Shown one piece after another: positions 3,541 through 47,181 of a stretch of DNA of 64,000 bases (position 1 is its first letter; every line of letters begins with the position of its first letter). This stretch comes from Lobosporangium transversale (taxonomy: Eukaryota): positions 310,001-374,000 of the forward strand of contig NW_019028995.1 of assembly GCF_002105155.1 (NCBI RefSeq), read 5' to 3'. Position numbers and translations under genes: made by a program. A model generated the notes under the pieces. That model saw only the letters and a list, made by a program, of their open reading frames with translations. It was not told where the DNA came from and ran no database searches.

Positions 3541-4730
3541 TTCATAGAAAGCATCTTTCAATATTTCAGCATATCTATACCATAGTTTGGTATTGCTAAC
3601 TCATTCACACCTATTCGTTTGTATTTTGTACTTCAACTACCATATTGGTAATAAAGTACATAAAATCTTTGAAGGCTCCCTAGAGTTGATAGAGTGTGTG
3701 TGAATTACAATGTTAAAAGGAAAATGAAGGAAAAGGTTCCTTATCCGACTGTTATGCTTAGTTTCAGCCCCTCCACATGAGTACATGTAGTGGCATGCTT
3801 AGTGCACCTCAAACCTTGATAATTCATTTGTACCTGTCTGTGTGCCTCGCTGCTTTTTTTTTTTTTTTTTTGAGAGCTATTCAACCCGACAAACAAATAA
3901 GCAAGTAAGTAAGCACACAGTGCGATTTGTCCTTTCTTCTAACCATCCAGCGGGTAAATAAGACAGCATATTCATTTGGGCGTTCATTCAAGGCATACCC
4001 TTTTTCTTTGGGATAAAAAAAAGAAAAAAGAAAAAAAGAGCAGGAGTTGGTTGGTTTTTTACATACAAAGTTGGCCTTAGTCTATGAGTAACAATGGACA
4101 AAACAAAGGGACCCTGGTCGGTTGTCTACCCAGATATTTCTCAGAGCACGAGCAAACCGGGAATAGTATAAATGAACCTTCGAACAAAAAAGATCCATGC
4201 GATAAACGAGAACGACAAATGCGATTGATCAAGGCCAGAGAGCAGGAAGAAGTTGAGAAGTTGTGTAACCAAGAGCTGTGGATGAACTCGTTCGGACAGG
4301 TCTGGCCCAAGTTGCTCTTTGCCATTTTTCTTTTTTTTTTTTTTTCCTCTTTTCCTTCTTTACTCTTTCGAGCCCTCTTCCCCTCCCCACGCCCTGTCCT
4401 TCCTTCTACCATCCTATCCTTCCTTCTACCTAGACCTTCCTCCTTCCCTTCCTCCTCTACCGCCCGTCATTTGTTGCTGCTCTTCTGCCTTCCAGCCTGC
4501 AAATTTCCTTGTGACATACTCTCTCCATCGCTCCAGTATATCTTCATCTCTTTCCCGTTAACGATTTCCCCCTGTTTACTTTAACCTTGTCATCATCTCA
4601 TTGTCATATTTCGATTCATTACTTCAGCAAAAAAAGAAAAGAATCGTCTCATCTGCATCACCTCTGTCTTACCACACTTGACGTCTAATTTTATTGAAGC
4701 ATAAAAAAAAAAGAGGACTGACATTCGACT

Positions 4731-5882
4731 ATGAAGTTGTCAAAAGCAACCACGTTTCTGACCTTATATGCTGCGTTCCTCTTGGCTGCGCTGCCGTCTG
4801 ATGTCCATGGTCAAAGTATCTCTTCCCTTTTACCTTCTTCTAACCACCCTGCTACCACGACATCAGCCAGAGCGACCACAACCACGACAACCGTACCTGT
4901 CACCAACAATCCTCCTACGCAAACCCATACGACTCCTGCTCAAAAGACGACGACTGTAGCCAGCTCGGCGAATCGATTGTCCACAAACACTCAAAGCGCA
5001 CTCCCAACCACAACAACAAGTTTACCCATCCCAAGCAACAGTGATACCTGCGTAAACTCTTCTACATGTGCTGAAGGCCTTGTGTGTGCAGCGACAAATG
5101 GCACAGCGGGTACGTGCCAGCAGTTTGCTTATGTCTGCCAATCTAGTCCAGCTCTGACTTGTGTGACCAGCGCAGATTGCCCCCTGGCATTCTCACTCTG
5201 CACCGATGTAGAGGGCCAAAGAATTTGCGCAGGACGGGGCATCCCCGGCACTACTAACGAGTGTAAAGACCCCAAGGATAGTAGTTTGCAAAATACGCTC
5301 AAATATGCAGGCATTGCCGTTGGATCAGTTGCTGCATTTGCAGTCGTATTTGCTCTAGTTCGTTGGAAGAGACGTCGTCAACGCAGTGGTGTACCTGCAG
5401 AGATGTTTGGGGAGGTTGATTATGGCATGGCCGACCGTAATGGCTCGTCAAAGCCTGTAGAAAACTATCCATTCTCTAGCCGACCCAATGCCCATGGAAG
5501 TGATTATGCTCCTTCGCCGTTTGATTACAATGGTGGAGGTGGAGGTGGAGGTGGAGGTGGCCGTGGGTATGATGACCAATACTATGCAGAGCCTGTTGGA
5601 TATAACAACATGCATTCTGGCAAGGTGCGACAAGATCAATACTATGGTCATAATCAGTATGATAATAATCAGTACAGTGGCGGCTATGATCACCGCAATG
5701 ATGGTTTCTATGACCACGGTGGATACGATGGCTATCAACACCATCCAACTTCGCCAGCGCCTGTCGCACGGACCACTTCATCTCGCCATCAAAACTCCAA
5801 TACAATGGATAACTATGGTGCTGAGCCTTCAGAGCTGGACTTTGGTGGGCATGGCAGATATGGTGGTGGTGGCCGTTACTAG
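4731..5882 (+). CDS. Type I single-pass cell-surface protein (signal peptide, Ser/Thr-rich stalk, Cys-rich ectodomain, TM helix, Gly/Tyr/Asp-rich tail)
   Basis: 383-aa ORF with a hydrophobic N-terminus, a Thr-rich region, about 10 Cys, and TM YAGIAVGSVAAFAVVFALV followed by RWKRRRQR. Confidence 0.75.
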   Translation: MKLSKATTFLTLYAAFLLAALPSDVHGQSISSLLPSSNHPATTTSARATTTTTTVPVTNNPPTQTHTTPAQKTTTVASSANRLSTNTQSALPTTTTSLPIPSNSDTCVNSSTCAEGLVCAATNGTAGTCQQFAYVCQSSPALTCVTSADCPLAFSLCTDVEGQRICAGRGIPGTTNECKDPKDSSLQNTLKYAGIAVGSVAAFAVVFALVRWKRRRQRSGVPAEMFGEVDYGMADRNGSSKPVENYPFSSRPNAHGSDYAPSPFDYNGGGGGGGGGGRGYDDQYYAEPVGYNNMHSGKVRQDQYYGHNQYDNNQYSGGYDHRNDGFYDHGGYDGYQHHPTSPAPVARTTSSRHQNSNTMDNYGAEPSELDFGGHGRYGGGGRY

Positions 5883-9789: not shown

Positions 9790-11302
9790 ATGATGAAAAT
9801 TATCGACAAGATCAAGAACCATGGCCATGAGCATGACAACGCGGCTGTCGAGAAGGCAGCAGCAGAAGCAGCAGCGCAGCAGAGGCGCGAGCAGGAGCAA
9901 AAAGGACCCAAAATGCATCCCGAGCTTTTGGAGCTCTACACCGTCTCAGACAAGGTCTTGGGTGTAGGCACTTTTGCCACGGTGAAGGAGATTGTAGAGA
10001 AATCGACTGGTAACTGCCTCAATTTCAATATTTCTTTTTTTTTTTTTTATTTGTCATGCAATTTTAGTTTGTGTTCCTGTGTGCAATGGACCATTCATTT
10101 CCTTTTGATTTTGTGTAAAAAAAAAAAAAAAAAAAATAGGTAAAAAGTTCGCACTGAAGATTATCCTCAAGAAGACACTTCAGGGAAAAGCCGCTATGCT
10201 GGAGACTGAGATCTCAATCTTGTCCAAAGTTCGTCATCCCAATTGCGTTTCCTTGCTCGAGTTATTTGAGACTGATGATGCCGTCTATTTGATCACAGAT
10301 CTTGCGGAGGGTGGAGAGCTCTTTGATCAACTTTTGCAGAAGGGTTTCTACACTGAAGGAGATGCTGCTCGCTTAGTTTACGAAATTCTATCAGGTGTGG
10401 AATACTTGCACAAAATGGGTATTGTCCACAGAGACTTGAAACCCGAGAACTTGTTGTTCGCAGACAAGTCCGAGAATGCGCGTTTAATGATTACGGATTT
10501 TGGATTGAGTAAGGTTCTGACGGGAGGCAACGACGTGTTGATGACTGCTTGTGGTACGCCCGGATATGTAGCTCCCGAGGTTCTGGAACAAATTGGACAC
10601 GGCAAGCCAGTTGATATGTGGAGTATTGGAGTCATTGCTTATACACTGCTTTGCGGATACACCCCATTCTGGGGAGATGGTAAGCTACCTTTTCGTTATA
10701 TTTTTACTTCAGTCTTAAATAATACAGCATTGTGCTAAAAGCAGCCTTCTCATCCATAATTAGATCAACCTTCATTGTTCGAAAACATTATTTCGGGACA
10801 ATACGAGTATGAAGAGGAATATTGGAAGGATATTTCCGATCTTGCCAAAAACTTTATCGATTCACTTTTGGTCCCTGCTGATAAGAGGCCAACAGCCACT
10901 CTCGCTCTGAGCCATCCCTGGTTCCGTACCGTGTTGGAGCAGGACATGGTGACACCTGTCTCGCCTACCGACAGCGTCAATCTTATGCCTGGAATGCGCA
11001 AGAACTTCAATGCTCGCTCTACTTTCAAGAAGGCTGTTCGTGCAGTGGGTTTGATTCGAAAGATCAACGCCAACTCTTCAGACTCATCGTTTGGTTCGGG
11101 TGAGGATATGGCAAGCCAGCAAGAAGTCACTATGATTGGCGGTAAGGGTCGCCCTTCAAGTACATTGAGCTTCCATGATATCGTGAATGTTGCAGTTCTG
11201 TCTAGTAAGGGTCTTGGCTTGAGTACGACTGAGGAAGACGAGGATGGCGAAACAGAAGGTCTTGAAAAAGCCACAGCAAACTTGGATATTAAGGATTCGT
11301 AA
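9790..11302 (+). CDS. Calcium/calmodulin-dependent protein kinase (CaMK1/CMK type), 3 exons
   Basis: Motifs LGVGTFATV, HRDLKPENLL, ITDFGLS, TACGTPGYVAPE and a CaM-binding-like FNARSTFKKAVRAV segment. Introns at about 10010-10139 and 10680-10763. Confidence 0.93.
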
Positions 11303-14723: not shown

Positions 14724-15813
14724 GGCTATGTATTTGATTTTAATGTAAGGATGAGAGGGAAGAGGATAATAGAGAAAGGATGTGGTTGTTATAGATCTTT
14801 TCAGAAACCGAGTAAATCGTCAGAAGGAAAGAGAAGAGATGCGCTGCTTTTTATAGCCCTTCAAGATTTTTTTTTTTTTTTTTTTTTTTTTTAGCGGAGA
14901 TATATTTTCAACATGATAACGCAACGCAAAAAGGAATTTACACCAGTAGTCATAATCCATGAACAAGATTTTCATGTACGGCTCTGCGCATCGAGTCTTC
15001 GCGTACATGCTCTATAATATTCCATAAATAGCGCCAAGCAAATCAAACAACATCGCAGGCCACTCCATTCGTTGATGTGGAAGGCCAGTGATGAGCAAGT
15101 CGTTCCACAATTAAATCGGCTCTTGTTCTGCCCACGTTGTTATGTAAGTGGTCCAAGACAGTAAGTGGTCGACGGACTTTTTATTTTATTTTTATGATGA
15201 TAAGGAGGAAGAGAGAGGGGGAAAGGAGAGAAAGAGAAAGGAGAAAAAGGAAATCACCCTGCCTATATCAACTACAAGGGTTCGCTTTTGCAATTGCATT
15301 CTTGGAGATGTGAATGATTGTCTTATCAATTTTATGTGAACAGACAGACAATAAAGAAAGTGGGTCCAAAAAGACTTTGAGGATGGGGCACAGGCGGAAA
15401 TGTGGGGAATGGAGAAAATACGTTGATCTGTGGGGACAGCCTTCAAACGTTCAAGGATATTTTATAGCCCCGACTTATCACATCTACTACAAATATATAT
15501 ATACGTATAATATCAATGCGGTTCAACTTAAGCCATAACAATAACAATAACAATAGCAATATTAATAACGCCATCAACCCCAACAATGACAACGATAGCA
15601 ACAATATTATATAACACAGCAGAAGCAGTCGACATTAATAACCAGCCCTGTTGTCATCATTCGATCGACAGACCCCCTGTGCTCCGCATAGGATACAGAT
15701 ACAGAATACAAAAAATTGTTGTGTCAATCACGAATCTACAGTATAAACGCGACCTTCATATTTATACATTTTCTACATGTATTTTTGTTTTTTTAAACAG
15801 GACAACAAGCAAA

Positions 15814-18231
15814 ATGACACTGTCCAAAAGCACAGCACTAGCCATCACTGCCAAAGAGTTTGCAAGATGGCTCTCCCCATTATACAGTCGACAAAACAGC
15901 ATTGCTTCATGCTTGGAGCAAGGTCTACCAAACAATGAAAGACATAAAAGTCATTCCATGGATCAGAATCCCACTGACATTCATCAATCTCGTCTAGAGT
16001 CCAAGGACCACAACATTGCTATAGCTGTCTCTGGTGGTGTTGATAGTATGGCTCTTGTAACACTGTTGGCAAAACATTATTATCCTACACAAGATAGAAC
16101 TAAACAACAACAGCTTCATACTGTCCCTACAAAGCTACATGCCTTAATTGTCGACCACAAACTAAGAGATGGCAGTTCTGAAGAGGCTGCCTTTGTTGCA
16201 CAACAGGTGCAAAGACTGAGTATGTTGTTATGGTACACTGGATTTGACCAGAAAGGAAATCTGTGAACCTATTGTTGTTACTATGACTATTGTTATAATT
16301 ACTATTATTATTATTTTATACTGAAAGCTAAACTGTTGAACGATATCCAGATGTCACCCCGCATGTACTTACGTTGGATTGGATTGCCAAAGACAAAAAC
16401 AGTGGCCAGAACCAAAACCATCAGAATGATGATAATGATGAGATTTACCAGCTTAATAGACCTAGTAAAGTTCACCTCGAGACTAGAGCGCGCGAGGAAC
16501 GATATAGGGTCATTGCTCAAAAGTGTCACGAACTTGGAGTCAGAGATTTGTTTGTGGGTCACCATTCTGGTGATCAGGTTGAGACTGTCATCTTTCGGTT
16601 CGCAAGAGCTAGTGGCATTGATGGCCTTGCAGGGATCCAAGAAGATACCCCTTTAAGCGTTGTAAACGTACCAGAAGGTTTAAATATCCAAATCATCAGA
16701 CCACTTTTAAAAGCTACGAAAGTAATTAATTGAAAACAAAGGAATGACCGTTGAATAGACGGAAAAGACAGGAATCAACCATCATAGGACTAGAGTTTCT
16801 AATTTATATCATTTTATATCATTTATATCTTTCAGGACCGCCTGAAGGCAACATGTAATGAAGCAGGAACCCGATGGGTTGAGGACCCTTCGAACAAGTC
16901 ATTGGATTATCAACGGAATGTCATCCGGCATTTTCAGCAGGACATAGATGCGTGTGTCGAGAAGGACCCAAACTCGGAGCTGAGTCCTTTATCATCGAAG
17001 GCTTGGTTGGAATTCCGTGCAAGGATGGATCAACATCGGCGAGCGGCCTGGGATCAAGGTAACATCTATGTGATTCCAGAGTAATTATTTATTACTATTA
17101 TTATTATTTCATTATCATAATTACCATATCATCATTATAATAGAAAATGACCTAGTCATATTTTCTGCTCTATCAATATTAGTGAGACCATGGTTACGGA
17201 ACATCTTCTTTGATTCTGCAAATGGTGTCTGCTATGTAAAATTGCAGGCGACCAGCACTTCAGAGGATGCTATAAGAAGTACATCGATTCCTACAAAAGT
17301 GGAATGGTTGGAGAGATCCCAGAATCATGTGGCCATGCGCCTTGTCTCCTATTTAATACACTGGGTGAACTGTAAAGACCACGCTCCCCGTTCCGAAGAT
17401 GTGCAGATGTTGTTGAAGCAACTGAAAAAACCTTATTCTGTTATTGGCTCTTATTTTGAAGCAACTCGTATGAAAAGCGTCTGTGATAGCTCAACAAAGT
17501 CTATACAGAAAAAGAAGCGCGCTTCCAATCGTTCATCTGCTGCCCGACAACAAGATATATCATCAAAGTTCGCCATAGCCATGACTGACAGTCATTCTGA
17601 AGCAATGTCACTTCCGCCCATCAATTTAGCAGGCGTGCAATTCTCCCCACCAAGAAGCACAAAGGGCCTCCCTGATTACTGGACCCTTGCTCGGCAACCA
17701 ATGTCCCGTGCCGATCGAAAAGCCGTTACGATAGCATTTTCGATAGGGGGCGATAATGAAGAAGCTAAGAGAGACATTTTCTTTGATGAGAGTAAACAGA
17801 GCAATGAAGTTAACCTGCTTTGGGATCAACGTTTTTTCCTCAAGATACAAAGCAGTAGCTTTAGAAGCGTTCCCAATGCTCCATCAAGGGGTCGGATATA
17901 CATAAAGCCGATGCGTCAGGAGGATGCATCAATTATTCAAAAACTAGAAGCATCCGGCCAGCTGGAGCAATCAAAGACGATAGATCTCCATACATGGATG
18001 ACGGCTGTACCAGGCAGCTGTCGGTTTACTGTCCCTGTTGTTTACCTAGAAGGCAACAGCGGCGATACCGGGGCTGAGCCAAGAAGCCAGATGTTTTTGT
18101 CCTTACCCACCCTGGGCCTTCATATGAAGGCTTCGCCATTTGCCATCCAAAGTTACTTCAAATCCAAGCACCCAGTGGACGGACCAGATATGGCTTGTTT
18201 AAAAGAGGCATTCAGTAAAATGTTGAAGTAG
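15814..18231 (+). CDS. tilS: tRNA(Ile)-lysidine synthase-like PP-loop ATPase, 4 exons
   Basis: Motifs IAVSGGVDSMAL, LIVDHKLR..S.EEA, ETRAREERY, GHHSGDQVETVIFRFARASGIDGLAGI, IIRPLL and WVEDPSN. Introns at about 16220-16350, 16722-16835 and 17059-17182. The true start is uncertain. Confidence 0.88.
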
Positions 18232-18352: not shown

Positions 18353-21185
18353 TTATGGAGCTATACAGTCGGGTATCTTGATCTTGAGGTTCCCGTCCTT
18401 GTCAAAAAGACCCCAATAGGGTTCGACAGGAACCTTGGGATCGTTCTTCCATGGCTCATCCTTATATTCGAACCAATAATCTAAAATGTCAATAAAAAAA
18501 TAAAAAAAAAGCATCATAAAGTCAAGAGAGTTATTAGACCGTATCGACAAGTTGTACCAAAAGATAAGAGAGAATAAACAATAAGACTTACATGGAATGC
18601 CTTGTTGGTTGGCTTCACAAATAAATGTGTCGATCATGGTTTGCAGATTGGCCACGCCAGGGACAGCATAAGTTTCTAGAAGGAGGGTATAGAAAGAAAG
18701 AAAAGTGTGCTGTCAGTATGAACCTTATGATTAGGGACCAAAAAAAAAAAAAAAAAAAAAAGAATTCTTACGGTATATTGCGCTGGCAGGTGCGGAAGGC
18801 CAACCAACCTCCGAGATAGCACCTTTGAGGCCAGTCTTTGTTGGGTTCCCTAGTATAACATCGTTATATTGCTGGATGGTCCAGTTGGCAGCTTCCGAGA
18901 CAGCAGTGCCTGCAAAGTAAGGATGCAAGTTACCAGAAAGCTCGTCGGAGACTGCTGCCAACTCCGAGTTCAAATTGTTTCCAATCTCAGATGTAAAGAT
19001 TGGGATGGACTTGCCATAGCGGCTCTTGACAGTGTTGCGAACATCAGTCATCAGATTTGATAGTGCGGTCAGATCCATATCCTTTCGGAACAATACCTCA
19101 TTCCCCACACTGATACCCTGGACCATGTCAGTACCATAAGTATCCAGAACCTTGAAAAGGGTATTGTATTGACGTTCCACCGTTCCAGTATTGTTGTCAA
19201 CCCAGAGTGTCAAAACTACTTTCATGGTCTTATTGAGGTTTAATGCGTTGATGGCCTGGAAGGTCAAATCAGCTTGCTGACAGTCCATACCATATAGGCG
19301 AATGCGGTTTGTCAACTGCGACATGATGATTATGTCATCAACTACATTCTGGAGCGTGACACCGCACCAGGGCATGAGTGATTTTGCGGGATTGTAATCA
19401 AGGCCATAGAACGACTTGCGCAAGTTCGGATTGGGTGTAAACTGTGTAATAGGAGGCATTGTATTCGTGGGCCTGTCCGGATCCCTAGATGCCAAGGCCG
19501 AAACAAAAAACATTGTCAGTATATCTCCTTTTATTTTGAAAAAAAAAAAAAAAAAAAAAAAAAAGAAAAAGAAACATAACGGAAACAAGACATAGGACGA
19601 GGTTCACATACAATGGGGGAGCTAGACCATCGACTTTGCCCTTTCGTGTGATAAATCCAAGAACAATACCTGCAATGACAGCGATGAAGGCTAGGAGTCC
19701 AACCACACAGCAGATGCCGCGCCATTTACGACTTGCCCTGTTCTTGCGCTTAAGCCACTCGCTCTTCTCAAAGAGTATGGATGAGGAAGGATTTGAAAAT
19801 TCTGTTTCAGCAGAGTTATAGCTCTCCTTGTTGTGCTCTTTTGTAACCATTGCAGCTGATACCAATTCCATCTTCTTTGAGCTGCGGATGGATCCATCAT
19901 GAGCTTTGACCTGCATAGGCCGTGGCGAAGAAGCAGCTAAGAGTCGCTCGCCTTTGGCATTCAGCTCAATATCGAGGGCACTACTACTACTCGCAAATGA
20001 TGAAGTGTTGGAGTTTCGACGTGACGACTTTAGGGAACGACGACCTGGTTGAATAAATACGGGCTTGGGCTTCTCTAGATGCTTAGTGTCGGTAGTAGTA
20101 TTGATTTCGTCTTCATCGTCCCCATTCAAGACATCGTACAACTGCTCGCGGCTGGTGATCCCTTCTGAACTTTGCAGGACAGATAAATGAGTCAAAACTG
20201 GCGCAACACTAGAGGCCCTTGAGCCCCTTCCAGAGCCATTGTTATGCGACGTTGTTGCGCTTTCCAACTGTTGCTGCGAACTTTCCAACTGTTGCTGCGA
20301 ACGTGGTTGGCGTAGTGAAGGAGCAGAGGATCGCTGAGTTAAGGATTGTTGACTTGAAGACGCCCTTAACCTTGCATCGACTGCCGCAAGGACATTGGGT
20401 GCCATGACAGGGGAACTGTCGGGATAAAAACACACCGAATCTGGCCGGAGGGTCCCTGGGGTTGAGTATCGAGGAGTGAGTTGATGCTGAGATAAGGGAT
20501 TGTTAGGACCTAAAGGCGGGAGATACTGCTGTTGCTGTTGTGAGGACATAGCAGAGGCTTGCGTGGTCGCAGAAGCGTTTGGTGGTGAGGACCTTGATGG
20601 GGAGAGATGTGAAGAGGCTAGCGATGCAGAGATTGGATGTATAGCTGAAGAATGATGGGTATTGGACATAAAGATTGGTGCCGAACGAAATTCGCGTGGG
20701 TCTCCTCCACTTCCTCGCTCTGCCACAACTGCTGCTGGCGCTTCTGAGATATTCTTTTCGGCCATGTTCACTACCGTTGATAGTCCTGGTTCTGAAGCGT
20801 CCTGGCTGAGTGGTGCCAACGACGGTATTGGCGCGCTCGAAATAACGTTGATAGAGTCTGATCGGGTTGATGGTCGATGACGTGACGTGAACAGTAAGCC
20901 CCTATCAAACACCATCTCTTCCTCTGGTGTTGTAGGTACAACATTTCTTCTATGGCTTCCTTCTTCAAAACGTGAATAATGATCCGAGGAATCAAGTGAA
21001 TTATTGAAAGCAGGTACTTTTAATTGTCCGCTATTTTTTGGTAATGATGATGGATCTCTAGGGTTGTCGCTTGAACTGGAGGAAGATACATTATCTATGG
21101 GCAATGTGGATGATGTAGGCTTTGAGATTGCTTTTAGGCTAGACGAGGGTTTTCTCAGAGATGTGTCAACTTCTGTTGGTTTCAT
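18353..21185 (-). CDS. btgC: Membrane-anchored GH17 beta-1,3-glucanase/glucanosyltransferase (BtgC-like), 4 exons
   Basis: Long disordered N-terminus, a TM helix, then SFYGLDY.P, IRLYGMDC, ISVGNEVLFR, NLHPYF, ISEVGWPS and EPYWGLFD. Both GH17 catalytic Glu motifs are present. Confidence 0.88.
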
Positions 21186-23239
21186 GACTAAAGGAGAAAG
21201 ATTGGGAAGGGAAATAGATGAGCACGTCCCTTGGTTTATTAATTAATGATGCACAGAAAAAAAGGAGATGTTATTAGGAAGAAATGTTCAGCGACGATAT
21301 GAGGACAGAATGCTAGAGAATGAAGGCATAAAGGTCAATGGACAAGTAAGGTGAGAAGAAATGGTAAAGAAAATACCTTAGGAAAGGCAGGAGATGAGAA
21401 AGAATGATAAAGAATTGTCGAAAGAAAATAATGATGACTAAATTAAGAGAAAAAGATGTCTGAAAATGTGTAACATGCGACGTAGAAACAGGGACAGCCA
21501 TCCAAATGAACTAAATAAAATATTGTTGAAGCTCACTTTTTTGTTCTCAGAAAAGGTGAGAGGCCAGATTGATTAATAAATCTTGGCTTGCAAGATAGTA
21601 CCGACATCAATAAGAAAAGCTGAGGCTTTTGATTGTTTGTTCAATGATTCCATTTCTTGTCCATTAGCAGGCATCGTTAGGATCTCATCCATAACATCGA
21701 CGACATGGTGAAAAGCATTACCAAAAACAAGATAAACAAGGCTGCACATTTAGACTCATGAACAAGCTGCATACGCAGCAAATCAGAACAAACGTGCCTT
21801 AATCTTATGCAGGAACTGGACAAATTAATGAGCGTCACTCGCAAATGAACGATGTAATGCATATTTTGCTTGTCAACGATTAGCAACTTTAGAAATATCT
21901 ATAATTTTTATCTAAATATTTCACCTCACATCAACATCCCGTCACTTTATACATCGATGCTCTCTCTCGCTGTTTCGTCATTAACACTTTTGAAAACACA
22001 ATAAACAATTACCTCTAAAAAATAGCTGATTCAAATGTTTTGCAAATACAAATGTGTCAAATTTGTACTTGTGTTATCTTGACAGTGTGCCACAATTTTG
22101 TTGGACCCATTTTTATCTGAGGTTGAACTCAACACAATGTTGTCATGATGATGAGAATATATTTGTAAGTTCAAATCTCCAAAATGTCAAGAGACAAAGT
22201 GATGTTCAAGACTTATCGTTGTCTTTATCAACTTTTAAGACTCTTGATCTTTCTTTTTTCCTTTTTTTTCTTTATCTACGCTAATGTCTATCAATAATTG
22301 TGAGCCAATAAGATTTGGATGGCAAAACGTTGTCCGGCTCATTGGGGTGCTGCGTGGGGACAAAAGATTCCTTGAGGGCTCACCTCTTTAATCTAACAGT
22401 TTGTGCTTCCCCATATGATTCTTTGATTCACATTTTTTAATTGTAACTGGGATAAATATGGGGGCTCATTTTGCTATAGAGAAGCCCATGTCCAACAGAC
22501 ATCGCAAGGACCCAATGCTTGCCTTTTTCTTTTTGTTCAGCGTTACCAATGGCTGTGCTGACGCTATTGTTTCTTCCCTGGGAACTTTGATCATGGGCAA
22601 TTGGTTCGAGTATTAGAGATCCTGCATAACAATTAAGATTAAACAAAATGTAGGCACAGCACAACATGTCACTCACATTAACACGTGCTAAAATTAAAGC
22701 CCAAAGTGTCTTTCATCTCGACAGCTACGGATACATTTCGCGCATCTGAAGGTGAGGATCTTGCTACTCGTTTCCACTCCATTTTTTTTACCTGGCTCTC
22801 ACCATCTCTAATAGATTCTCTAAATCAATGCTACGCCACGATGATGGAAGCGCTTTTGAAGCCATCACATTCCTCTATCGAGCTTTCATACCTTTTCATA
22901 GCAAACTGTCCATCAACCCTATGGAGGCGAATTTTTCCCTTTACAGAATATCAATCGAAGATGCCCAGGGCATAGAGTTTCTGTACTCTTCTAGATGAGA
23001 AGCATAGGTCTACAAGAAGTATATAATATTGGACGAAGCGCTCGCTTCTTCTCCTTGGACTGCGTTGCTGTTACGCCCAAGCGTGCTTGCAATTTCCGAA
23101 ACGATATACGTTGGAATAAACTCGGTCAAGATAAGAACACCTGATATTGAAAGATACAAGTATTTAAACAATTCAACGCGTTCTTGCATTTCATTGAATT
23201 CATTGGATTCATAATATTATGGATGTCGCATTATCATTG

Positions 23240-23285
<46 letters not shown>

Positions 23286-23456
23286 CGTAGAAGATGGGTT
23301 GTCAAACCGCCATCTTATTTTACTTTGCTATCTTTAAACATAACGCACAGACAAATGAATCCATTTCTAGTTTTTATTTATTTATTTATAATTCTAATTC
23401 TATTTTAGTAATGAGGACAGGCAATCCATTCTTGGCAAAGGACAATGTACGAGTTT

Positions 23457-24158
23457 TTACTGGATCTGGATATCAGCGCAAGAAGTGTACCATTCATTCT
23501 TGTTCAACATCCAGCGCCATTGCAACTGATAGATACCAGGACGGCGCTTAGGAACATCGAAGCATCCACCGCAAGTACGACGATCCTCGTTCCTACCGGG
23601 ATTGCAGTTCTTGTAAGGCAAGAGAGCAACAGTGTTCTTAAGCAATTCCTGCTGGTTCAGCTCCAGACCAGCTCTGGGCGCCAAGTTAATCTGGACCATA
23701 TTGTTAGGTTCATTCTTCTTGGCGTGGTTCTTAGAAGGCCAGCGGACACACAGCCTCTTGCCGACGGAGGTCACGGTCATACGACCGTATCTACCACCGT
23801 AGGCATCCTGAGGGCGGCGAGCACGGGTCTCATCCGAACCCACCTCGACACCGTGCTTCCTGTCAGAGCAGGCAATAGCCCTGTTGGGGGCGGGGTTACT
23901 GTGGGTTTGCTGGTAGTGGCGTGAAGGCCAGGCGACATCCAGGGAGCCAAATTCCTTGTCTTTAGGGAAACGGCGGGGATATCCCATGCAGTAGCCTCGA
24001 CTGCTGGAAAAGTCCAATTTCTTGGATCTGGGGTTCTGGTTCTTAAACCTCCAGTCAATGCAGTCAGCCCAAGAATGGGCCTCGGCCTGAGGAGTATAGG
24101 AAGAGAAAACCGCCATAGTGGCGACAAGAAGGAAGGTGAAGGAAGACTTGAGGACCAT
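23457..24158 (-). CDS. Secreted His1 protein, LPMO-like, paralog 1 (intronless)
   Basis: The signal peptide ends AEA|HSW. A second His lies in WPSKNH, the C-terminus reads YQLQWRW...EWYTSCADIQI, and there are multiple Cys. Confidence 0.8.
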   Translation of the reverse strand: MVLKSSFTFLLVATMAVFSSYTPQAEAHSWADCIDWRFKNQNPRSKKLDFSSSRGYCMGYPRRFPKDKEFGSLDVAWPSRHYQQTHSNPAPNRAIACSDRKHGVEVGSDETRARRPQDAYGGRYGRMTVTSVGKRLCVRWPSKNHAKKNEPNNMVQINLAPRAGLELNQQELLKNTVALLPYKNCNPGRNEDRRTCGGCFDVPKRRPGIYQLQWRWMLNKNEWYTSCADIQIQ

Positions 24159-26741
24159 GATGAAAATGATTAAATGAAAATGAAAGCTGTTTTACACGGG
24201 GTATAGAGAAGGTTTGAGTAAGGAAGGAAGGATAGGGGTTAGATGCTAGGTAGTGTAGCGTGGGGGGAGTAAACAATGCAGAAGCAAGTTGAGAAGAGGA
24301 AAAGACGAGGAGCAAGAGAAAAAAAAAAAAAAAAAAAAAAAAAAGTCTTAGGGTGGAGGAAGTCTTCAATATTTATAATAAAGTCTACAATACTGATAAT
24401 CCTGGGGGATAAATGTGAATATCTTTTTTTCTGGTGGTCTTGTGGTTGACAAAAATAACGCTTAAAAGCTGTTATGAATTGACCGGTTCAGCATTATGGC
24501 ACTAGGGTACAACACATGTACACATACACCTATCTGATCTGGAATGTTCAACAAACCTTGTAAGTTTTTCGAATAGTCTTTTGTGCTTTTGTTTTTTACT
24601 TCCTCCCTTTCTTTTGCTCATATGGAAGGTAGTCTCATTTTAGGTCGCATGCATTGACAGGCAGTATAATATGAGCCACTGGGAGTAGCTGTCTCCTGAA
24701 CCAAGATTAAGTGAGCTTTGGCGCCTTAGGCTTTCTATTTCCATTTTGGCAAGAAATGAAATCGTCGTGACTTCCGCAAAAAAGCTGTTTATTTTTACTT
24801 TTTCGGTTTGTAGTTTTTTGTTTCTTCAGAATGAGCACTAGGAGTTGCCGACCTTGATTGGAACATATTACGATTATACTGACTTTTATTAGCAAAAAGC
24901 AAGGACTGAATATATAACACTTCCTTTCACTCGCATAAAACTCTACTTGAATGTACATGTAGCATAGGTTTACAGCTCATAGATTAAAAACCCATGGCAT
25001 TTGTGGGATAAATGGCAATGTGTCTGTGTATGCTACAACATCCATGATGTTCCTTGCTGTGCAGTTCCGTTTCATCATCCAGATTTTTAATCGTGTCACC
25101 AATTCAATCTTGATTTTCATCCCTTGCCCTCTCTACAATAATCTCTGTCCATTTCTGTCAACTCTGGGACAGCTGATCAATTCTAATCTAGCAGTCTAGG
25201 CCTTTTTTGTTATCATTTACAGGTGCTCAAACAAGATATGCTTTATTTGAGCACAAGTTGCTTACAGAAACCGTTTTATGCAAACAAACAAGCAAAATAA
25301 AAAACTCTATCCCTCCAACGAGTTTGTGAACTTCTTTCTTTTCCAGAACACCAATGATGGGAATTCATTTTATTCATATACTTGCTTTCTATAAGACCGT
25401 ATGACGGAACCTATGAATGCTGGTAGGATTTTTGTCTTTTTTCCTCTCAAGACAGTAGTCATTTATGTACTGTATAGCAATGGAAGCAAGATACATCTGC
25501 CTTTATTAAAAACAACTCCAATTTTGATTTTGCAGTCTATTCATGCATTCCTACGAGTTTTTTTTTTCTCGTCCTATCGTGTTTACAATGTATATATATA
25601 TTTTATAGTATGGAGGAAGAACACGAAGCGGAAATAACAGCCAAAGCGTTCATTAATTAATTAAAGTATGTCATGATTCGGCCCATCTAGAAGAACACCC
25701 TTTTTTTTCTTTTTCTTTTTCTTAGATAAAATAAACAATGAGGCTCATTTCAACATTGCAGCGAATATGTTGGATGAAGTGGGAAACAAAGAGGTGGAAG
25801 AACATGGCGATTTGCCTAGACTTTGTAGACTTGTTTCTGGGAGGACATGATAAAACTTTACATTGAATAAAGTAACAGCGGGAGCTTAATTCGCACTCCC
25901 ACATGGATTAAGAATATATATAATTAGGGTGCTGTATTTTGAAGCTCGAACAAAGCTCCAGGCAAAGGAAATAAGGAGCTGCAATGGTAATGCATTTCGG
26001 CATATAAAATGTATAGCAACTTTACATCTCTATATATATATACTATCTGTGGCCTTTTATATATATTTATAGATTCAGATTCATGCTTTCACCCTTGTTG
26101 TAGTCAATAACGTCGGGGCCGATACGCGCGCATGCATTTCACAGCAAAGTGAACTAAAAATAAAAATCTGATTCTATTGAGCAGTGATCGAACCTACCAA
26201 ACGGTCACAATAACTCATCTTCCTTCGTGCTCCTTGTGAAACAGAGGATCATCTCTGACGCGTTATAGTTCTAGAAATCCTAGGACCCTTGGTTTAATTT
26301 CATTACCCATCGAGTCAGGACCATAAAGGTAGTCTTCTCTTATTGCCAAATAATGCGACAATCCAGAAACTACCCTTAATAATAGAAGTGAATAAAATAA
26401 AATCTGCTCTGCTACCAAATGGATCTGCATCTTCTTGATAGTGAGCCAGGACGTGAAGAAAGAAAGTGTGGGAACAGAGGATGGGACATGTATGGCCCTG
26501 GCTCTAAGATAATAAGCCAAAGTTGTCATGTTATTCAACTTGGCTAACTACTTCCTTTCATTATTAGTCTATGATAGTGTGATTGAACACCCATGCTTCT
26601 ACTTTACTTCTTCATTGGCTACCTTTGGAACAACAATGGTGGTCAGATAAGATGATATTGTATTTATTCTTAGATTGAAGTTTTTTTTTTTTTTTTTTTT
26701 TTTTTTTCATTGTTACTTCAGTTTATGTTCTTCAGCCAGGT

Positions 26742-27571
26742 TCAGAGGCGACGCTTATTTCCACGTTTGTCATCCTCAATTTGGATGTCCTAAAATGAAA
26801 AAAGAAAATATCGCGTAAGTATCAATAACGACATATTAGGAATAAGAACCATCCAAAACAACCAGCATTAATAACCATTATCATATTATAGCTTACAGCA
26901 CAACTAGTGTACCATTCACCAGGATTAAGCATCCACCTCCATTGAAGGAGGTATAGCCCTGGTGAACGCGCCGGCATCTTGAAGCATCCCCCACAGGGCT
27001 TTTTATCCGTGCCGGATCCACGACTACAGTTCTTGTACGGCAATCTGGCAATAGTATTTCGGAGCAACTCTGCCTGCGTCGCGTCTTGGCTGTTGCGAGA
27101 CTTGATCAAGTTGATCTGAACAATTGTATTGTCTTCGTTGCCTTCTGCGTGGTTTTTAGCCGGCCAGCGGACGCAGAGTGTCTCTCCAGATCGTATCGTT
27201 GCCATTTCTCCATATTTGCCGCCATAGGCACTCGAGACTGGGTCTCCCATTGTTTCATCCGAGCCTATATCTTTACCATGTCTGCGATCCGAGCAAGGCA
27301 AAGCGGTATTGGGATTACCAGCTTGTTGATAGTGGCGCGAAGGACTGGCATCGTCCAACGTGCCAAAGTTTAGGTCCTTTGGGTATCTACGGGCATAGCC
27401 ACGACAGTATCCTCCTTTATCCGAAAAGTCGGGATTGGTTCGACTGTGGAACTTCCAGTTGACACAGTCCATCCAAGAGTGTGCCTCGGCTGCTGGGGTC
27501 AAGTTCGATGAAGCGAAGAGGACCAACGCTGAAGCTAGGATAGTGGTATAGGTTGCGGTAGAGACGAGCAT
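26742..27571 (-). CDS. Secreted His1 protein, LPMO-like, paralog 2 (intron 26790-26896)
   Basis: AEA|HSWMDC...WPAKNH...YLLQWRWMLNPGEWYTSCA|DIQIEDDKRGNKRRL*. Removing a GTAAGC...TAG intron restores the CADIQI ending seen in paralog 1. Confidence 0.8.
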
Positions 27572-29266: not shown

Positions 29267-32200
29267 CTAGTCTCCTCTACTTGTAGATTCAATCGAGATC
29301 CGCTCAAGCTCCTCCTCAGTCTCAAACCCAGAGACCATCATCCCATATTTGAGACTGTACTGCATCTCCACCTCTATCTCCATCTGCTGGTGCTGGCTCT
29401 GGAGCTGCTGAATATACCCCGACTGTAATTGTGATTGTCGCTGTTGGATTTGTTGGATATGCTGGAATTGCTGAAACTGTTGAAATTGTCGAAGTAGCTG
29501 GACTTGTTGGATATATCCGGCCTGATGAATTTGTTGTATTCGGGTACCCTCTGCTGCAGCTGCTGCAGCAATCTCGTTGGTATTGACAATAAGTTCATGG
29601 CTCTCTTTCATCACTACATCCTCCTCCACATCTTCTTCGTCATCATCTATCTCTTCGTCATCATCTATCTCTTCGTCGTCATCTATCTCTTCGTCGTCAT
29701 CATCTTCCTCTTCCGATCGCTCCCAACCTATCCTTCTCTGTGGCTTCTCAATGGTAACAAGCTTTTCATATTCCAGTTCAACATAGGCAATCCATGGCGA
29801 CTCTCTATTTATGTGATCCAGCGTTGCGCATGAGAAATGAAAGGCAGATTAGTGCTACTATTATAATTTTCAATATGGGGATCATCTGATGAATGAAGTA
29901 GATCCATTATTCATAACAAACCTAATGGTCGCTAATAACGCCTTCTCCTTGCGTTCTTCCTCGGTCAAAGCGTTGTGCATCATTGCTTGCTGCCTTTTGC
30001 GACGTTTCTGCTTTGTTCGTTTCCTGATATGCGCTGCCTCGATAGCTACTTCAGTTATCTCAACAGCGCCTCCTAGGTCAATATGAGTGTTAGAGATCAT
30101 TGGCTCCATTTCTCCTCTACCAGCAGCTATATGGATATTCATGTTGGCGCTCGTACTTCCATCAAAATGGCTTCCAGACTGACCGGTATAATTAGAATTA
30201 TTTAGGGTCGTGGTAGCATCAGCTACTACTTGAACGGCAAGACTGACGTCGAGACCAAGACCAATGTTACCTCTACTATCAGAACTCATATCCAGCGAGC
30301 TAAAACTCAATCCTTTTTCGGATGCAAGCGTGGCTACTCGTGGTGTCCTGGTAAAGCTTCCAATATTTATACTATCGCTGTTACTATCATCCTCCCCTTC
30401 CTCCTCTTCCTCCTCCTCCTCCTCCCCCTCGCTATATTCATTATCTAGATCGGCGTATATGTCGTCATCACCTTCACCTTCATCACCATCATTATATAGA
30501 TCCTCGCCAAGCGCTGCTCCTTCCCATGCAGAATCCGCGGCCCGCTGCATAGCAATCTGCTGCTGTTTCATCCTGATTTGATGTTGATGTGCCTCAAAAG
30601 ACCTCCATCTTACAACGTTGCAAAATAGGTCGATGAAAGGCCCAGCTTGTCCACACCGCTTAAGGTCTAATAGTCGAACCAGTCCCGCCTCCTTCGGATT
30701 GACTAGATCCTGCATTTGGCAGATGGCATCCTCGAAGCCAAACGGCTCCATGCCTAATATGTCCATCCTGGCGACTTGCTCTTGAAAGAGTTGTTCGAGC
30801 TCAAAAACGGTAAGAATGCCATCTCCGTCAATATCCATACACCGAAACCAATACTCGATGGATGTAACTGTTTGTTTGTCAGTTTCGGCTAGAAGAAACC
30901 AGATGAAGCCTTTGTAGGTCATGCGATAACCTTGGGGTTGGCATTGGCTCCCAGGGCCTGTAAGCATTGTTCGTTGCGGGTTCATCATAGCTGCCTTTGA
31001 CGCTATGGCTGTTGAGGCGTTTTCGAGCGGTGGTCCGCTACTAGACACTGCTTGAGGTTCTTTGGATGAGGCTGTGCCGACAATGGCTAATACTTCTGTT
31101 GTATCCATAAGCTTAATAGAAGATAGATCCATAGATATAGATCGCTTCAAAGCTTTAGGCTCACTATCTTGGAAATCAACAAAATCTACTTCTACATCTA
31201 CATCGAACACTACAGTGGGGACTGCGCTGTCCAAACTCGGAGTAATTACATCCTCTAAATCTCCTTCGGGGGCCTGTTGCTCTTTTTGTAGAGCTTCATG
31301 CTGAGCTATCTGCTGTTGGTCCTGATTCTGCTGCTGTTGCTGCCGCAGTAGTAGACCTTGTTGGTCATTCACCATAAATATTCCCATCTCATTTCCATAC
31401 CCTTGCATGACTCTACGGATTATCTTTGAAGATATAGCACCTCCCGAATACCCCATTAGGTCCTGTTCATCTAAAACCAAATCGTGGTCTTGATCCAGCT
31501 CCCAAAACTTGCAATAGATTACGTAAAAATGCTTATATGAAAAGCAATCTTCCGTTTGGTTCAAATCACTGCTCTCGAGCTTTCGCAACGTTTTGTCAAA
31601 ATTTGAGCGGCGTAAGTCGAAGAGTGACATTTTACCATGTCGACGGTTGGCGTCGTAAAATATACGAGTGATGACCGTTTCCACTAAAATGAGTATGAAG
31701 CAAATGTGAATAACAGCTGTTGGGAGCATTGACAAAAAAGAGGAGGGAGGGGGAAGAGTGTGTCTACATACGATAGCGTTCCTGGAAAACAGTATTCCCA
31801 GAAAGAAACTCAAGCCCAGGATGGTACAAAATTAGATCCTGAAGTACCACCTCAAAATCAGTAGGGGTTAAAAACTTGACATTGGACTGCTTTAAGATCA
31901 TGAAAATCTAGACATTTCATAAGCAGGTAGCAAGGAGTTTGTTAAACGCGTTCCCGTTTTTAAGAGGCCCAGGCAAATGACGCCAAAAATAAAGAAAATA
32001 TACCATCGATGTCTCGTCGGGACATGTTTCCGCGAGCGATTCCCAGACACGCTCAAATTCGCGGAAGTGAACATAACCACTACCTGTTAGGTCGACTCTA
32101 CGGAACAAGGCTCGATTCAGATAGCGCGGTAGTCCACAACACTGCACAGTGATGGTCACAAAAGCCTCTTCTGCCAATGATTCATCCTCAGATGCAATGA

Positions 32201-38251: not shown

Positions 38252-40738
38252 TCAGCTAAAGTATGATGTTGTTGGTGAATATGTATCTTCTTTAGAGAAC
38301 TTGGCAGGGCCCGACGACATGGATCGTAATGACGAAGAACATGGTGCCTGAGACACAATGGCACCTTTGGAAGGCGACACCAACGTTTCCCCACAACCAT
38401 CACGCTCAATCACCAATTGCCAAACAATAGCCTCATAGCAGAACACATATTGACGCAAACACTGAACCATCGAAAGTCGCTGCTCTCGGAACCTGTTTAC
38501 GGTCGCATAAACTGCATCAATTGTCGAGCCCCCCAGCCACTCACTCTGCGTAGGGGCTCGTCCGATGGTATTTAAAGCGTAAGCATTGTTGTGAATACCA
38601 CGGGGATGAGATAAGTCTGATGAAGTTCGCGCAATACCAAGCACTTCGGAGGACTGTTGCTTGAATCCAGAAAGTACAGAGTCAATAGTGCAAAAGGCTC
38701 CAGTCCTTCCACACCCCGCGGAACAATGTATCACCATCGGGCCCGCCAATGCTTGGACATCATTGTTGTAGCTGTTCGCAAGGTAAATCACCCTGAGTAC
38801 ATCCATTGGCGTCTCCGGGACGCCAAAATCTGGCCAGCCAGTGTATTGAATCTGGGTGATTATCCGCGTTGACGACCTTGCCTTCTCTTCCTGAGTATGG
38901 TCGCGATTGCGATGTCTCAAACACATCTGACGTACCAAGATTGTGTCATTGAAGCCATCGAGACGACGCTCGTTAATAAATTTGACCTCCAAGAGGCCAA
39001 GATCCATGATCGGATGCTCTGATGATGGCCAGTACTGATGACACTTAATCCTGCCCATCTCGAATTCGCGTGTGAGCATGACAACAACTTGTGACCCTTG
39101 CTCCCAGACTATCTTCCAAAAGTCTTGAAATGTCGATGGTAATGGTGCTTGAGTTGCAATGTATGATTTGTTTCCGAAGGGAGAGTTTAGGAACGAGGCA
39201 TTAATATAATCATCTTCCTCGTCCTGGCACTCCTTGATCTTAACTCGTGTCTGATCAAAGGGCCAGATATGGTTATACCGGTTCTTCAACCCTTTCTCCA
39301 ATCCGGCAGAAATACTGAGTTTTGTCTCCTTATTAGATGTCATTTCCTGGGGCGCCATCAGCAGAGCAAGCCTCTTCTTCTCACTACCCTCGATTTTCTA
39401 AACAGAGAAATCGCCGTCATGGTGGTTGCACGAGAGAAGATGTGAATACAACCATTCTTTGAGTTCCTTTGAGGTAGATTGATTTAATAAAACTATCATC
39501 TAAACTTTATATAGTCTTCTGTAGTCTTACCTGAAAGCATTTGGCCAATCTAGACTTGCCTTTGTCAGGATGAATGGCCTCATCTAGCCAAGAGGGGAGT
39601 TGGCCTTGAAGACTGTCGGCTGTAAATCCAAGTGGGAGGCGGACAGCAACTTCTTCCGTGATGCTTGTATTGAGGCCCATTGCTAGACGGACACTCTCAA
39701 AAAGGGGGTTGATATTGGGATTCTCCATCATGGGTGTCTGGCACACGGAGGTCTCACCGGTATTTGGCTTGGCCATAATCTCGGGCAGTGAACCAAGATG
39801 TAGGCGACTGCGTACGTTAGTTGAGGATTTTTTTGTCTCGCTGACTGAATTCGGGTTGGATCCCTCCTGTTCTTGACCTTTGTTTGATACATCAAGCATC
39901 CCTTGTTGGTTTGCACCATAGCACAGAGATGCATGGCTATGAGCAAATGCATTATATCCTCCTATACGAATAGAATGATCATAAGGATATGTCAGTCCAG
40001 TTGTAATAAATAAAAGGAACTTGATACCCTTGAATAGAAATCAGTGCTCATAGTAAGAAGTGAAATCATGATATATATTTACTCTATATAGAATACTATC
40101 ACCTCTTGCCTATTACTTGTTGCTTATTGCTTACCATGAATAAAGGCCATTTTGGCTGAACAGCCTTCCTGGCGAAACTTCTGAATAATGCAAAAAATGG
40201 GCGATCCCTTGACGGGTAGTGTCCCCGTAGCATCAAATACCACAATGTTGGAGAACTTTCTCCAATTCGAGAAAGCTTCAACCTCCCTCTCCGTCCTTAA
40301 CTGCTCCATCACCATCTTAAGAGAGTACATGGGACGCTTCAATAACACATTGGGCACACTCACATTGATGGCAGATTTGATAGTGGACGTAGCATAGCAG
40401 GTAAGCGGTCGCATGTCCAGTAGCAGAACAATGTTCCTATCACCATTACGACTATTGATGGACCTTTTAACTAGCTCTGAGACCCTATCGGTGCTCATCT
40501 CTTCGATCTCAAGATCTTCAAGAGTGGGCGGTTTTGTTGACGCTGATGGTGTGGATGGGAGAGATGATGTTGAAGCCAGTGGCAGTCTGAGAGACGAGAG
40601 AGGGGAAGAGTTGAATTGGATATTTTGAGATTGAGTGGATTTGTGCCACGAACCTCTGCGCTCCATAGTTGATCCTTTGGGATATGGCTCCCAAAGCGGA
40701 CCAGACGTGATGTTATTGATTTGTGTCACTGGTGGCAT
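38252..40738 (-). CDS. Protein tyrosine phosphatase with N-terminal rhodanese-like domain (Ptp2/Ptp3/Pyp1-like MAPK phosphatase), 3 exons
   Basis: Rhodanese-like LLLDMRP...IKSAINVSVP..LLKR, followed by KNRYNHIWPF, DYINAS, YIATQAP, WPDFG, HCSAGCGRTG and MVQCLRQY. Confidence 0.92.
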
Positions 40739-46030: not shown

Positions 46031-47181
46031 AACATATTTTACAATATTATTCTTTCTTTACTGATGCAAAAGCGGGGTCAATATTGAGCACAAGGATTTC
46101 GAGGGACGAGCACAGCATGGACCAACCTTCGTACCAGGCACAGACGACCAATCAGACAGGAATGGGCACGGAACCTTTGTCGCCGCAGTTGCCGCAGGAA
46201 CAACATTTGGCGTGGCTAAAAAGGCTCGAGTTGTGTCCTTGAAGGCTTTAGATAATGCTGGCTCTGGGAGGCTTTCAAACGTTCTTTCTGCGATTGAATG
46301 GGTTGTCAAACAGCATCTATCACAAGGAGCAAGTGCTCGATCAGTCATAAAGTATGCCTATTCGATCGAATCCTTTTGTATCCCTATACTCACTATTCAT
46401 TCTATAATAACAACAAAAATGTAGCTCTTCTTCTCTACCCAAATCATCTATTAATCATCCTTGCTTCCTTTCAAAATGTTTGAAAAGCCTGTCATTAGGC
46501 GCCGAATATAATGAACTTACCAATATAGCCATTCAAGAAGCTATGAAGCTTGGTATACATTTCTCAATCGCAGCCGGAAATGATAGTAAGGACGCATGCC
46601 AATTCTCACCAGCATCTACACCTGGGGCTGTAACAGTTGGTGCAACGGACCAAGATGACACAGTTGCTCATTTTTCTAATTGGGGCCCATGTGTTGCTAT
46701 TTATGCACCGGGTACGAATATTCTCTCGGCCTGGACTGGGTCTAATTCTGCCAATCATGTTCAAAGTGGAACATCAATGGCCTCTCCTCATGTCGCTGGT
46801 TTGATGGCTTTACTCCTTTCAGAATCACCTAAGGATAACATCCCCGTTAGGACACTGGCAAAAATGATTTTGAAGTCAGGGACAAGTTTCAGCCTAAACG
46901 GTCAATCGACTGTTGCTGGCACGAGACTCTCTCACAATTCGTCTTTGTCACCATCAATTTTATCAGAGATTACAGAATATGATACTCTGAAATTCCATGG
47001 GAAAGTCCTTGCAAGGAAACTTCTATATGTTGACTCAATGACTCCTAATGGAAGCAATAGCACGGATATTGAGGACCCACCAATGACCATTGTTTCTTTT
47101 GCACCAACAAAGTTAGCAAGTCATCAGTTATTCAAAAATATACTCTTAGGACTAATTTGCTTATTCATCTGTGCTCTCTGA
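45148..47181 (+). CDS. Subtilisin-like serine protease (S8A, proteinase K type) with signal peptide, prodomain and hydrophobic C-terminus, 4 exons
   Basis: Motifs NWGLDRIDQR, IYIIDT|GV (Asp), NGHGTFVA (His), AAGN and SGTSMASPHVAG (Ser). Exon 1 (45148-45241) encodes a signal peptide. Confidence 0.9.

Follow-up and report, generated by a model that had tools for sequence, protein, structure and literature searches.

The Lobosporangium transversale genome contains two neighbouring genes that read as small secreted proteins, and the question they raise is whether these are copper-dependent enzymes of the lytic polysaccharide monooxygenase (LPMO) type that fall outside the classified families. The genes, here A and B, lie at 23457..27571 of a 64,000-nucleotide stretch (RefSeq assembly GCF_002105155.1, contig NW_019028995.1, positions 310,001 to 374,000 of the forward strand). 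This whole stretch is referred to as the window, and all coordinates below are window positions. A preliminary description of the same DNA had proposed an unclassified LPMO-like family from signal peptides ending in AEA, a first and a second conserved histidine, conserved cysteines and a C-terminal strand pattern. The pair is real, intact and anciently duplicated, and it belongs to a large eukaryotic family, apparently uncharacterised so far, that has a predicted LPMO fold and residue set. On balance we favour the reading that A and B are secreted copper LPMO-type enzymes of an unclassified family, with chitin or a chitin-like wall polymer as their most probable substrate.

Gene A (protein P0001; 23457..24158, minus strand) is a single exon encoding a predicted secreted LPMO-fold protein of 233 amino acids. 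Its signal peptide (residues 1-27, ending Q-A-E-A; 24078..24158, minus strand) has a hydropathy peak of 2.34 and conserved -3/-1 residues. Three further sites on the minus strand are numbered here from the mature protein, a 206-residue domain with an isoelectric point (pI) of 9.8 and a net charge of +17. His28 becomes mature His1 (24075..24077), a predicted copper-brace ligand. His145, or His118 in the motif W-P-x-K-N-H (23724..23726), is the predicted second ligand, and Glu222-Trp-Tyr224 (23487..23495) supplies Glu195 and Tyr197, a predicted second-sphere Glu and axial Tyr that align to Glu138 and Tyr140 of AA11. The motifs read HSWADC directly after QAEA, then WPSKNHA, then YQLQWRW...EWYTSCADI. 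Contigs of one sequencing run, of presumed type, span 23419-24298 and were not counted as evidence of expression.

Gene B (26742..27571, minus strand) has two exons and encodes 240 amino acids once spliced. Exon 1, read from the sequence as residues 1-225 (26897..27571), holds the signal peptide (residues 1-30), His31 (27481-27479), His141 (27151-27149) and Glu219/Tyr221 (26917-26909), all on the minus strand. The corresponding motifs are HSWMDC after AAEA and WPAKNHA. A 107-nucleotide intron (26790..26896, minus strand, GT...AG) splits the closing motif S-C-A|D-I between the Ala and Asp codons, and exon 2 (26742..26789, minus strand) adds the last beta-strand residues, a short charged tail and the stop codon. 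The intron call rests on its GT-AG ends and on the spliced 240-residue product, which is identical in reading to database protein P0060 (NCBI label Lobosporangium transversale). The C-terminal pattern Y.LQWRW...EWYTSCADI of the preliminary description thus stands for both genes, with the final C-A-D-I of B complete only after splicing. Seven database proteins (P0042, P0058, P0066, P0067, P0086, P0113 and P0142) end in S-C-A-V-S, as read-through of an intron of the gene B type would give. Such an intron therefore seems to be shared with relatives and often overlooked by gene callers. A and B are both intact paralogs and share 54% identity over 237 columns. Two antisense open reading frames (23415-23924 and 26966-27373, plus strand) were considered as genes and rejected as shadow frames, which match related loci only atop the family gene.

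Signal peptides were called from the -3/-1 rule, conservation and a hydrophobic core. In the 115 near homologs with an initial Met and a visible His motif, the histidine is preceded by Ala in 113 cases and by Ser in 2, and residue -3 is Ala, Val or Thr in all 115. The only strongly hydrophobic stretch in either protein is the N-terminal one, and in the gene B model a helix occupies residues 5-22, within the signal peptide. This lone stretch and the -3/-1 pattern fit cleavage immediately before the histidine and a product that has neither a membrane anchor nor a GPI anchor.

We next consider the predicted fold. AlphaFold2 models mature A with a predicted local distance difference test score (pLDDT) of 96.1 and a predicted template modelling score (pTM) of 0.92 (141 alignment rows), and B including its signal peptide with values of 91.1 and 0.85 (86 rows). 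Structure searches used the gene A model. Against 48,161 representative solved chains, ranks 1-23 are all LPMO or LPMO-like proteins at 8-18% identity, and the first row not so titled is rank 24, at Z 6.9. The best match is the AA10 enzyme ScLPMO10C (Z 11.4, root-mean-square deviation (rmsd) 3.3, 159 residues aligned), followed by the AA15 enzyme TdAA15A (Z 11.0, rmsd 3.2, 150 aligned). Other Z scores are 10.1 for AA13, 9.6-9.9 for AA11, 9.2 for AA9, 8.2 for X325, 7.6 for AA16 and 7.5 for the xylan-active 5NO7, and the model is roughly equidistant from AA10, AA15, AA13 and AA11. The matches listed by Foldseek are LPMOs of AA10, AA9, AA15, AA11 and AA16 together with PmoD, with query TM-scores of at most 0.5. 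These searches bear out the LPMO-like fold that had been suspected from the motifs.

Structural alignments run from residue 1 to 9 residues past Tyr197. Assuming an ungapped last strand, the axial Tyr has the same 9-residue offset from the alignment end in all four structures compared: Tyr184 in TdAA15A (5msz), Tyr164 in LsAA9A (5acf), Tyr166 in NcAA9C (4d7v) and Tyr140 in AoAA11 (4mai). LPMOs carry a motif N/Q/E-x-F/Y that includes the axial aromatic residue (PMC6420742), and both genes have it as E-W-Y.

Conservation was counted in a profile search over 354 stored family proteins, unfiltered for His, of which 353 matched. Denominators are the proteins covering each position, and since the proteins were collected with family profiles, the counts are not independent of the motifs. 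His1 is kept in 295 of 299 relatives, His118 in 337 of 337 and Cys200 in 321 of 321. Position 197 is Tyr in 316 of 322, with Phe in five and Met in one; exchange of Tyr and Phe at the axial position is known among LPMOs. Near homologs have Glu at position 195 in 111 of 115 cases. The second histidine, the conserved cysteines and the axial Tyr, all claimed beforehand from the two paralogs, hold across relatives as well as in both genes, and the accompanying Glu does so in near homologs. The cysteines C6, C30, C70 and C200 are invariant, and two further pairs are gained or lost jointly: Cys110/Cys172 (Fisher p 1e-44) and Cys158/Cys169 (p 1e-12), both uncorrected for kinship. In a coevolution alignment of 255 rows pre-selected for full domains, I7-D202 ranks second and links the N-terminus to the last strand, and W3-K116 ranks ninth and links the N-terminus to the His118 loop.

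Two other features of the conserved set were noted. Mature K116-N117 (23727-23732, minus strand) occurs with the near-invariant residues Arg35, Tyr93 and Asn192, and from the sequences these may form an unusual second sphere. A third histidine, at mature R53-H54 (23916-23921, minus strand) in the motif P-x-R-H-Y-x-Q, is present in 48 of the 50 near members and in 21 of the 25 intermediate ones and is absent among the top residues of the 66 distant members.

A working mechanism can be proposed from the copper chemistry described for the LPMO histidine brace (PMC10952591) and the Glu-Tyr second sphere described for AA11 (PMC10472438). Secretion and signal peptide cleavage would free the amine of His1. 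The predicted beta-sandwich, probably held by four disulfides (covariation indicates C110-C172 and C158-C169, and the others would lie among the invariant C6, C30, C70 and C200), would unite His1, His118 and Tyr197 as a copper brace, with Glu195 predicted to lie in an AA11-like second sphere. A reductant would prime Cu(I), and H2O2 or O2 would then drive the hydroxylation of a glycosidic carbon and so break the chain, as in LPMO chemistry generally. The substrate would be chitin or chitosan, encountered as food or in the fungus's own wall, and this is the least sure step.

The family itself is large. A word-seeded search returned 230 homologs at E<=1e-3 among 321 candidates, and among the 120 of these matches that were listed, all species-named ones are from Mortierellaceae. 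A profile of 114 homologs reached 443 clusters (50% identity) at E<=1e-3 among 1.84 billion representatives. Together these numbers show that the family is not a chance match. Description of the clusters rests on the best 150 of the 443. Among 30 examined, the named members outside Mortierellaceae are from Basidiobolus, Marchantia paleacea, Paradermamoeba, two dictyostelids and the chytrid Nowakowskiella, and Willaertia, Saprolegnia and Thraustotheca came from a further search (84 rows). HHalign aligns the near set with the distant one over their full length, at a probability of 100%. Patterns drawn from near homologs only, and hence of low sensitivity, gave no relatives among 77 pattern matches in prokaryote genomes or among 28 in viral contigs. 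One short family record, P0344, is labelled 'bacterium'. The liverwort record P0136 (Marchantia paleacea Mapa_005058, on a 2.98-Mb contig) carries His1, the second His and E-x-Y complete and is 49% identical to Mortierellaceae members. In the tree it falls among the fungal sequences, though weakly supported (80/88), and its 22 matches include no further plant. It is either a transfer from a fungus or contamination.

A description of this family was not found in the open literature, as judged from search listings, a search that left subscription journals and CAZy outside its scope. Automatic names in UniRef and the ESM Atlas read 'Chitin-binding type-4 domain-containing protein' or 'Lytic polysaccharide monooxygenase', with no Pfam family attached, and the existence of such names tempers the novelty.

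Domain fusions in the wider family bear on the substrate. CBM1 is fused to the distant member P0212 and occurs in 4 of the 84 rows of the further search, and P0245 shows the CBM1 motif. GH5 is fused in 2 of 141 members (P0216 and P0219) and a chitin-recognition module in 1 of 141 (P0247). These fusions tie the family to polysaccharides. PF27624 is precomputed on 10 of the 84 distant members, many of which have long C-terminal extensions. Isoelectric points set near members (basic, median pI 9.2) apart from distant ones (acidic, median pI 5.3), so their substrates may differ, and an acidic wall polymer is a possible one. PMC9391592 describes Mortierellomycotina as chitinolytic fungi whose chitinases have expanded, and the tables of that survey give L. 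transversale no secreted AA9, AA10, GH6, GH45 or CBM1. Chitin or chitosan is favoured on these two grounds, and for the Mortierellaceae branch we put that assignment at about an even chance.

Several observations weigh against A and B being polysaccharide-cleaving LPMOs that act on chitin. The modules fused to distant members favour cellulose over chitin, which leaves a chitin substrate weakly supported. The window proteins have no binding module, and C-terminal tails are at most 15 residues long in 79 of 105 near homologs. Over the whole family only 234 of 325 members have Glu or Gln at position 195 (Asp in 35, Ser in 21, Thr in 18), whereas Glu or Gln exceeds 96% at the corresponding position in AA9, AA10 and AA11 (PMC10472438). 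Position 116, two before His118, is Lys or Arg in 330 of 337, where TdAA15A has Ala89. The brace geometry of His1, His118 and Tyr197 is one that we infer rather than read from coordinates, and copper binding and activity of A and B are predictions. Precedents for a histidine brace that does not cleave polysaccharides exist in X325/Bim1 (PMC10952591) and in a polysaccharide-inactive AA16 (PMC13353379).

The pair could instead be copper-brace oxidases that chiefly make H2O2 from O2 and a reductant, to fuel other LPMOs or to act on microbes nearby, and that cut no polysaccharide. The AA16 just mentioned is reported as inactive on structural polysaccharides yet H2O2-producing, higher oxidase activity goes along with a Glu-Tyr second sphere (PMC10472438), and the 15 secreted dbCAN AA11 domains listed for the species (PMC9391592) could use the H2O2. 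The missing binding module would also suit such a role. The CBM1, GH5 and chitin-binding fusions of the wider family fit work at a polysaccharide surface, however, and several old paralog lineages fit substrate diversification better than a single helper role. We regard the oxidase explanation as unlikely.

With polysaccharide cleavage retained as the preferred function, a broader picture can be drawn, which we hold only tentatively and consider rather less than probable. This would be a new and ancient LPMO family whose range takes in early-diverging fungi, amoebae, heteroloboseans and oomycetes. Its copper site would differ from those of the named families in having a Lys-Asn-His loop in place of the Ala-x-His of AA15 and, in part of the family, in dispensing with the second-sphere Glu. 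Basic, stand-alone Mortierellaceae members would act on chitin/chitosan-type walls and CBM1- or GH5-fused protist members on cellulose, and one copy would have passed to a liverwort.

The pairing of A and B is not peculiar to this genome. Consecutive locus tags for family pairs recur across Mortierellaceae, with 14 pairs including that of the window. Both partners are in the tree for 12 of these pairs, and in 11 of the 12 only one of them belongs to the clade around gene A (43 rows, FastTree support 98). An IQ-TREE analysis of 54 rows places A in a starred clade (95/88) and B in one parallel to it (89/97), with bootstrap values not fully settled. A recent duplication of A and B is ruled out by these parallel clades, which recur across species and show that the duplication is old and that both copies were kept. 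The family has expanded in Mortierellaceae as an old tandem pair. In Basidiobolus, P0126 and P0271 (ORX79462 and ORX79461) have consecutive accessions on one contig and domains that are 100% identical over 192 columns; that pair is a recent duplication, unlike the old A/B pair.

The genomic neighbourhood says less. A GH17 cell-wall gene had been reported beside the pair, and it is real: a membrane-anchored, beta-1,3-glucanosyltransferase-like gene lies about 2.2 kb downstream (18353..21242, minus strand, ends approximate) and matches a solved beta-1,3-glucanosyltransferase at E 2.9e-20. It stands outside the pair system. Linkage to GH17 was seen at none of 63 related loci, yet more than 4 kb of downstream sequence is available only at L007, L015 and L020, and the neighbour so far adds nothing to the function of the pair. 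Both in the window (15532-18231, plus strand) and at the related locus L021 (2940-5142), a family gene has a PP-loop ATPase gene (PF01171) at a distance of about 5 kb, in differing orientation. This is loose microsynteny, probably of no functional significance. Other window neighbours encode a Kelch-BTB protein (495-2615), a protein kinase (10109-11302), an EF-hand protein that we take to be PP2A B''-like (29882-31831), a tyrosine phosphatase (38252-39397), a subtilase (46411-47181) and dymeclin (48616-49281). No copper-transport or chitinase family was found among the 21 other window open reading frames scanned. A frame of 386 amino acids at 4722-5882 (plus strand) looks secreted and is rich in Thr, Ser and Cys, with no Pfam match at E<=0.001.

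To our knowledge, each new LPMO family to date has brought a new substrate or biological role. AA15 and AA16 (PMC6420742) are such cases. Mortierellaceae are common chitinolytic soil fungi, and theirs is a multi-copy secreted family that Pfam does not capture and CAZyme pipelines probably overlook. Secretome surveys would consequently undercount the oxidative enzymes of Mortierellaceae. The variation in the second sphere and the conserved Lys beside the second histidine would probe the range of histidine-brace chemistry. Being small, single-domain and confidently modelled, the proteins lend themselves to expression, and the question can be put to a direct test.

How the pair relates to named families was assessed by phmmer, Pfam, profile and structure comparison, with the dbCAN/CAZy models, including that for AA11, outside these tests. 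Neither A nor B (the latter scanned unspliced) reached any Pfam cut-off, DUF7492 and X325 included. A phmmer search of A and spliced B against PDB sequences, a set with three AA11 sequences, gave no match at E<=10, and NCBIfam placed no LPMO-type family in 141 members. Glutaminase-asparaginase profile matches (E>=0.13) were treated as chance. The claim of novelty made for the pair has therefore survived, in that no strong match was found to any AA family that could be compared.

AA11 (AoAA11 4MAH/4MAI, AfAA11B 9EXJ/9HDG, 7P3U) is the family most readily recognised in the sequence. It shares the signal peptide and His1, a C-terminal hairpin G-x-Y-x-x-x-W-x-W...E-x-Y-x-x-C with Glu and Tyr in register, and the LPMO fold (rmsd 2.9-3.2, 131-140 residues aligned). 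AA11 chains are also the only significant PDB matches of the family profile (E 2.5e-7 to 4e-6), with E-W-Y falling on E138-M-Y140. A and B could accordingly be very divergent AA11 chitin LPMOs already counted as such by CAZy/dbCAN, in which case the activity would hold and the family would not be new. The 15 secreted AA11 domains counted for the species in the dbCAN survey (PMC9391592) could include them. That survey demanded E<1e-15 and 50% coverage, however, and the profile match is confined to the C-terminal hairpin, the final ~50 positions. Whole-domain similarity to AA11 was not detected for A or B by phmmer, identity over the structural alignment is 15-16%, and the AA11 Z scores are not above those of AA10 or AA15. 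The window pair has its own H-S-W-x-x-C start and W-P-x-K-N-H second-His loop and a longer domain (206 residues), and it lacks the GS-linker/X278 tail described for three of the four characterised AA11 enzymes. Of the competing explanations, we give membership of AA11 the smallest probability.

AA10 and AA15 (ScLPMO10C 4OY7, TdAA15A 5MSZ) give the top structural scores, begin with His1 and have the axial aromatic residue in register; AA15 also shares Tyr at the axial position and a wide eukaryotic range. They differ from the window pair in sequence, with 15-16% identity, and in the Lys or Arg that replaces the AA15 Ala two positions before the second histidine. LPMO_10 (PF03067, cut-off 23 bits) had no match at E<=1 for A or B. 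In the family it reached 6 of 114 near members at E<=0.1 (best 0.004) and 1 of 141 at E<=0.001, with 20.3 bits for the best distant member. AA9 (PF03443) likewise had no match for A or B, whose second sphere has Glu rather than the Gln of AA9 (His-Gln-Tyr); in the wider family it matched 3 of 141 members at E<=0.001 (best 2.4e-6, maybe near the cut-off). Solved members of AA13, AA14, AA16 and AA17 did not appear in the PDB sequence searches at E<=10. The founding member of AA18 is reportedly a jelly-roll enzyme with no LPMO-type fold. That family was founded by Santos et al. 2025 (cited in PMC13431639).

X325/Bim1 (LaX325 6IBH) resembles the pair as a secreted His1 protein with an LPMO-like sandwich (Z 8.2, rmsd 3.0, 123 aligned), and A and B might correspondingly be non-catalytic proteins of the LPMO fold that bind or scavenge copper. 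The fourth ligand of X325 is an Asp, a part that Asp47, conserved in 127 of 141 members, could play, and the loss of the second-sphere Glu in part of the family would fit such a role. Against this, catalytic LPMOs score higher (Z 10-11.4), the Mortierellaceae branch retains the axial-position Tyr and the Glu, and PF20238 (BIM1-like) has no match in the sets of 114 or 141 members. Bim1 is GPI-anchored, whereas the window pair has no hydrophobic C-terminus that would signal such an anchor and keeps E-x-Y. We judge a purely copper-binding role unlikely.

DUF7492 (PF24320; mostly Ascomycota), a name not found in the open literature searched, is the nearest Pfam family and, from the sequences, looks like a sister to the family of the window pair. 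It matches weakly at both domain ends, with a feature score of 0.85-0.90 in the ESM Atlas. Its matches reach E<=0.001 in 41 of 141 members and exceed the 27-bit cut-off in 6 of 65 scanned representatives; those to A (14.1 bits) and B (12.7 bits) fall below the cut-off and are partial. The window pair thus fails the sequence tests run for AA9, AA10/AA15, AA11, X325 and DUF7492 and is LPMO-like by fold and residues. As far as sequence comparison can tell, it likely represents an unclassified family that has DUF7492 as its sister and, in sequence, comes nearest to AA11.

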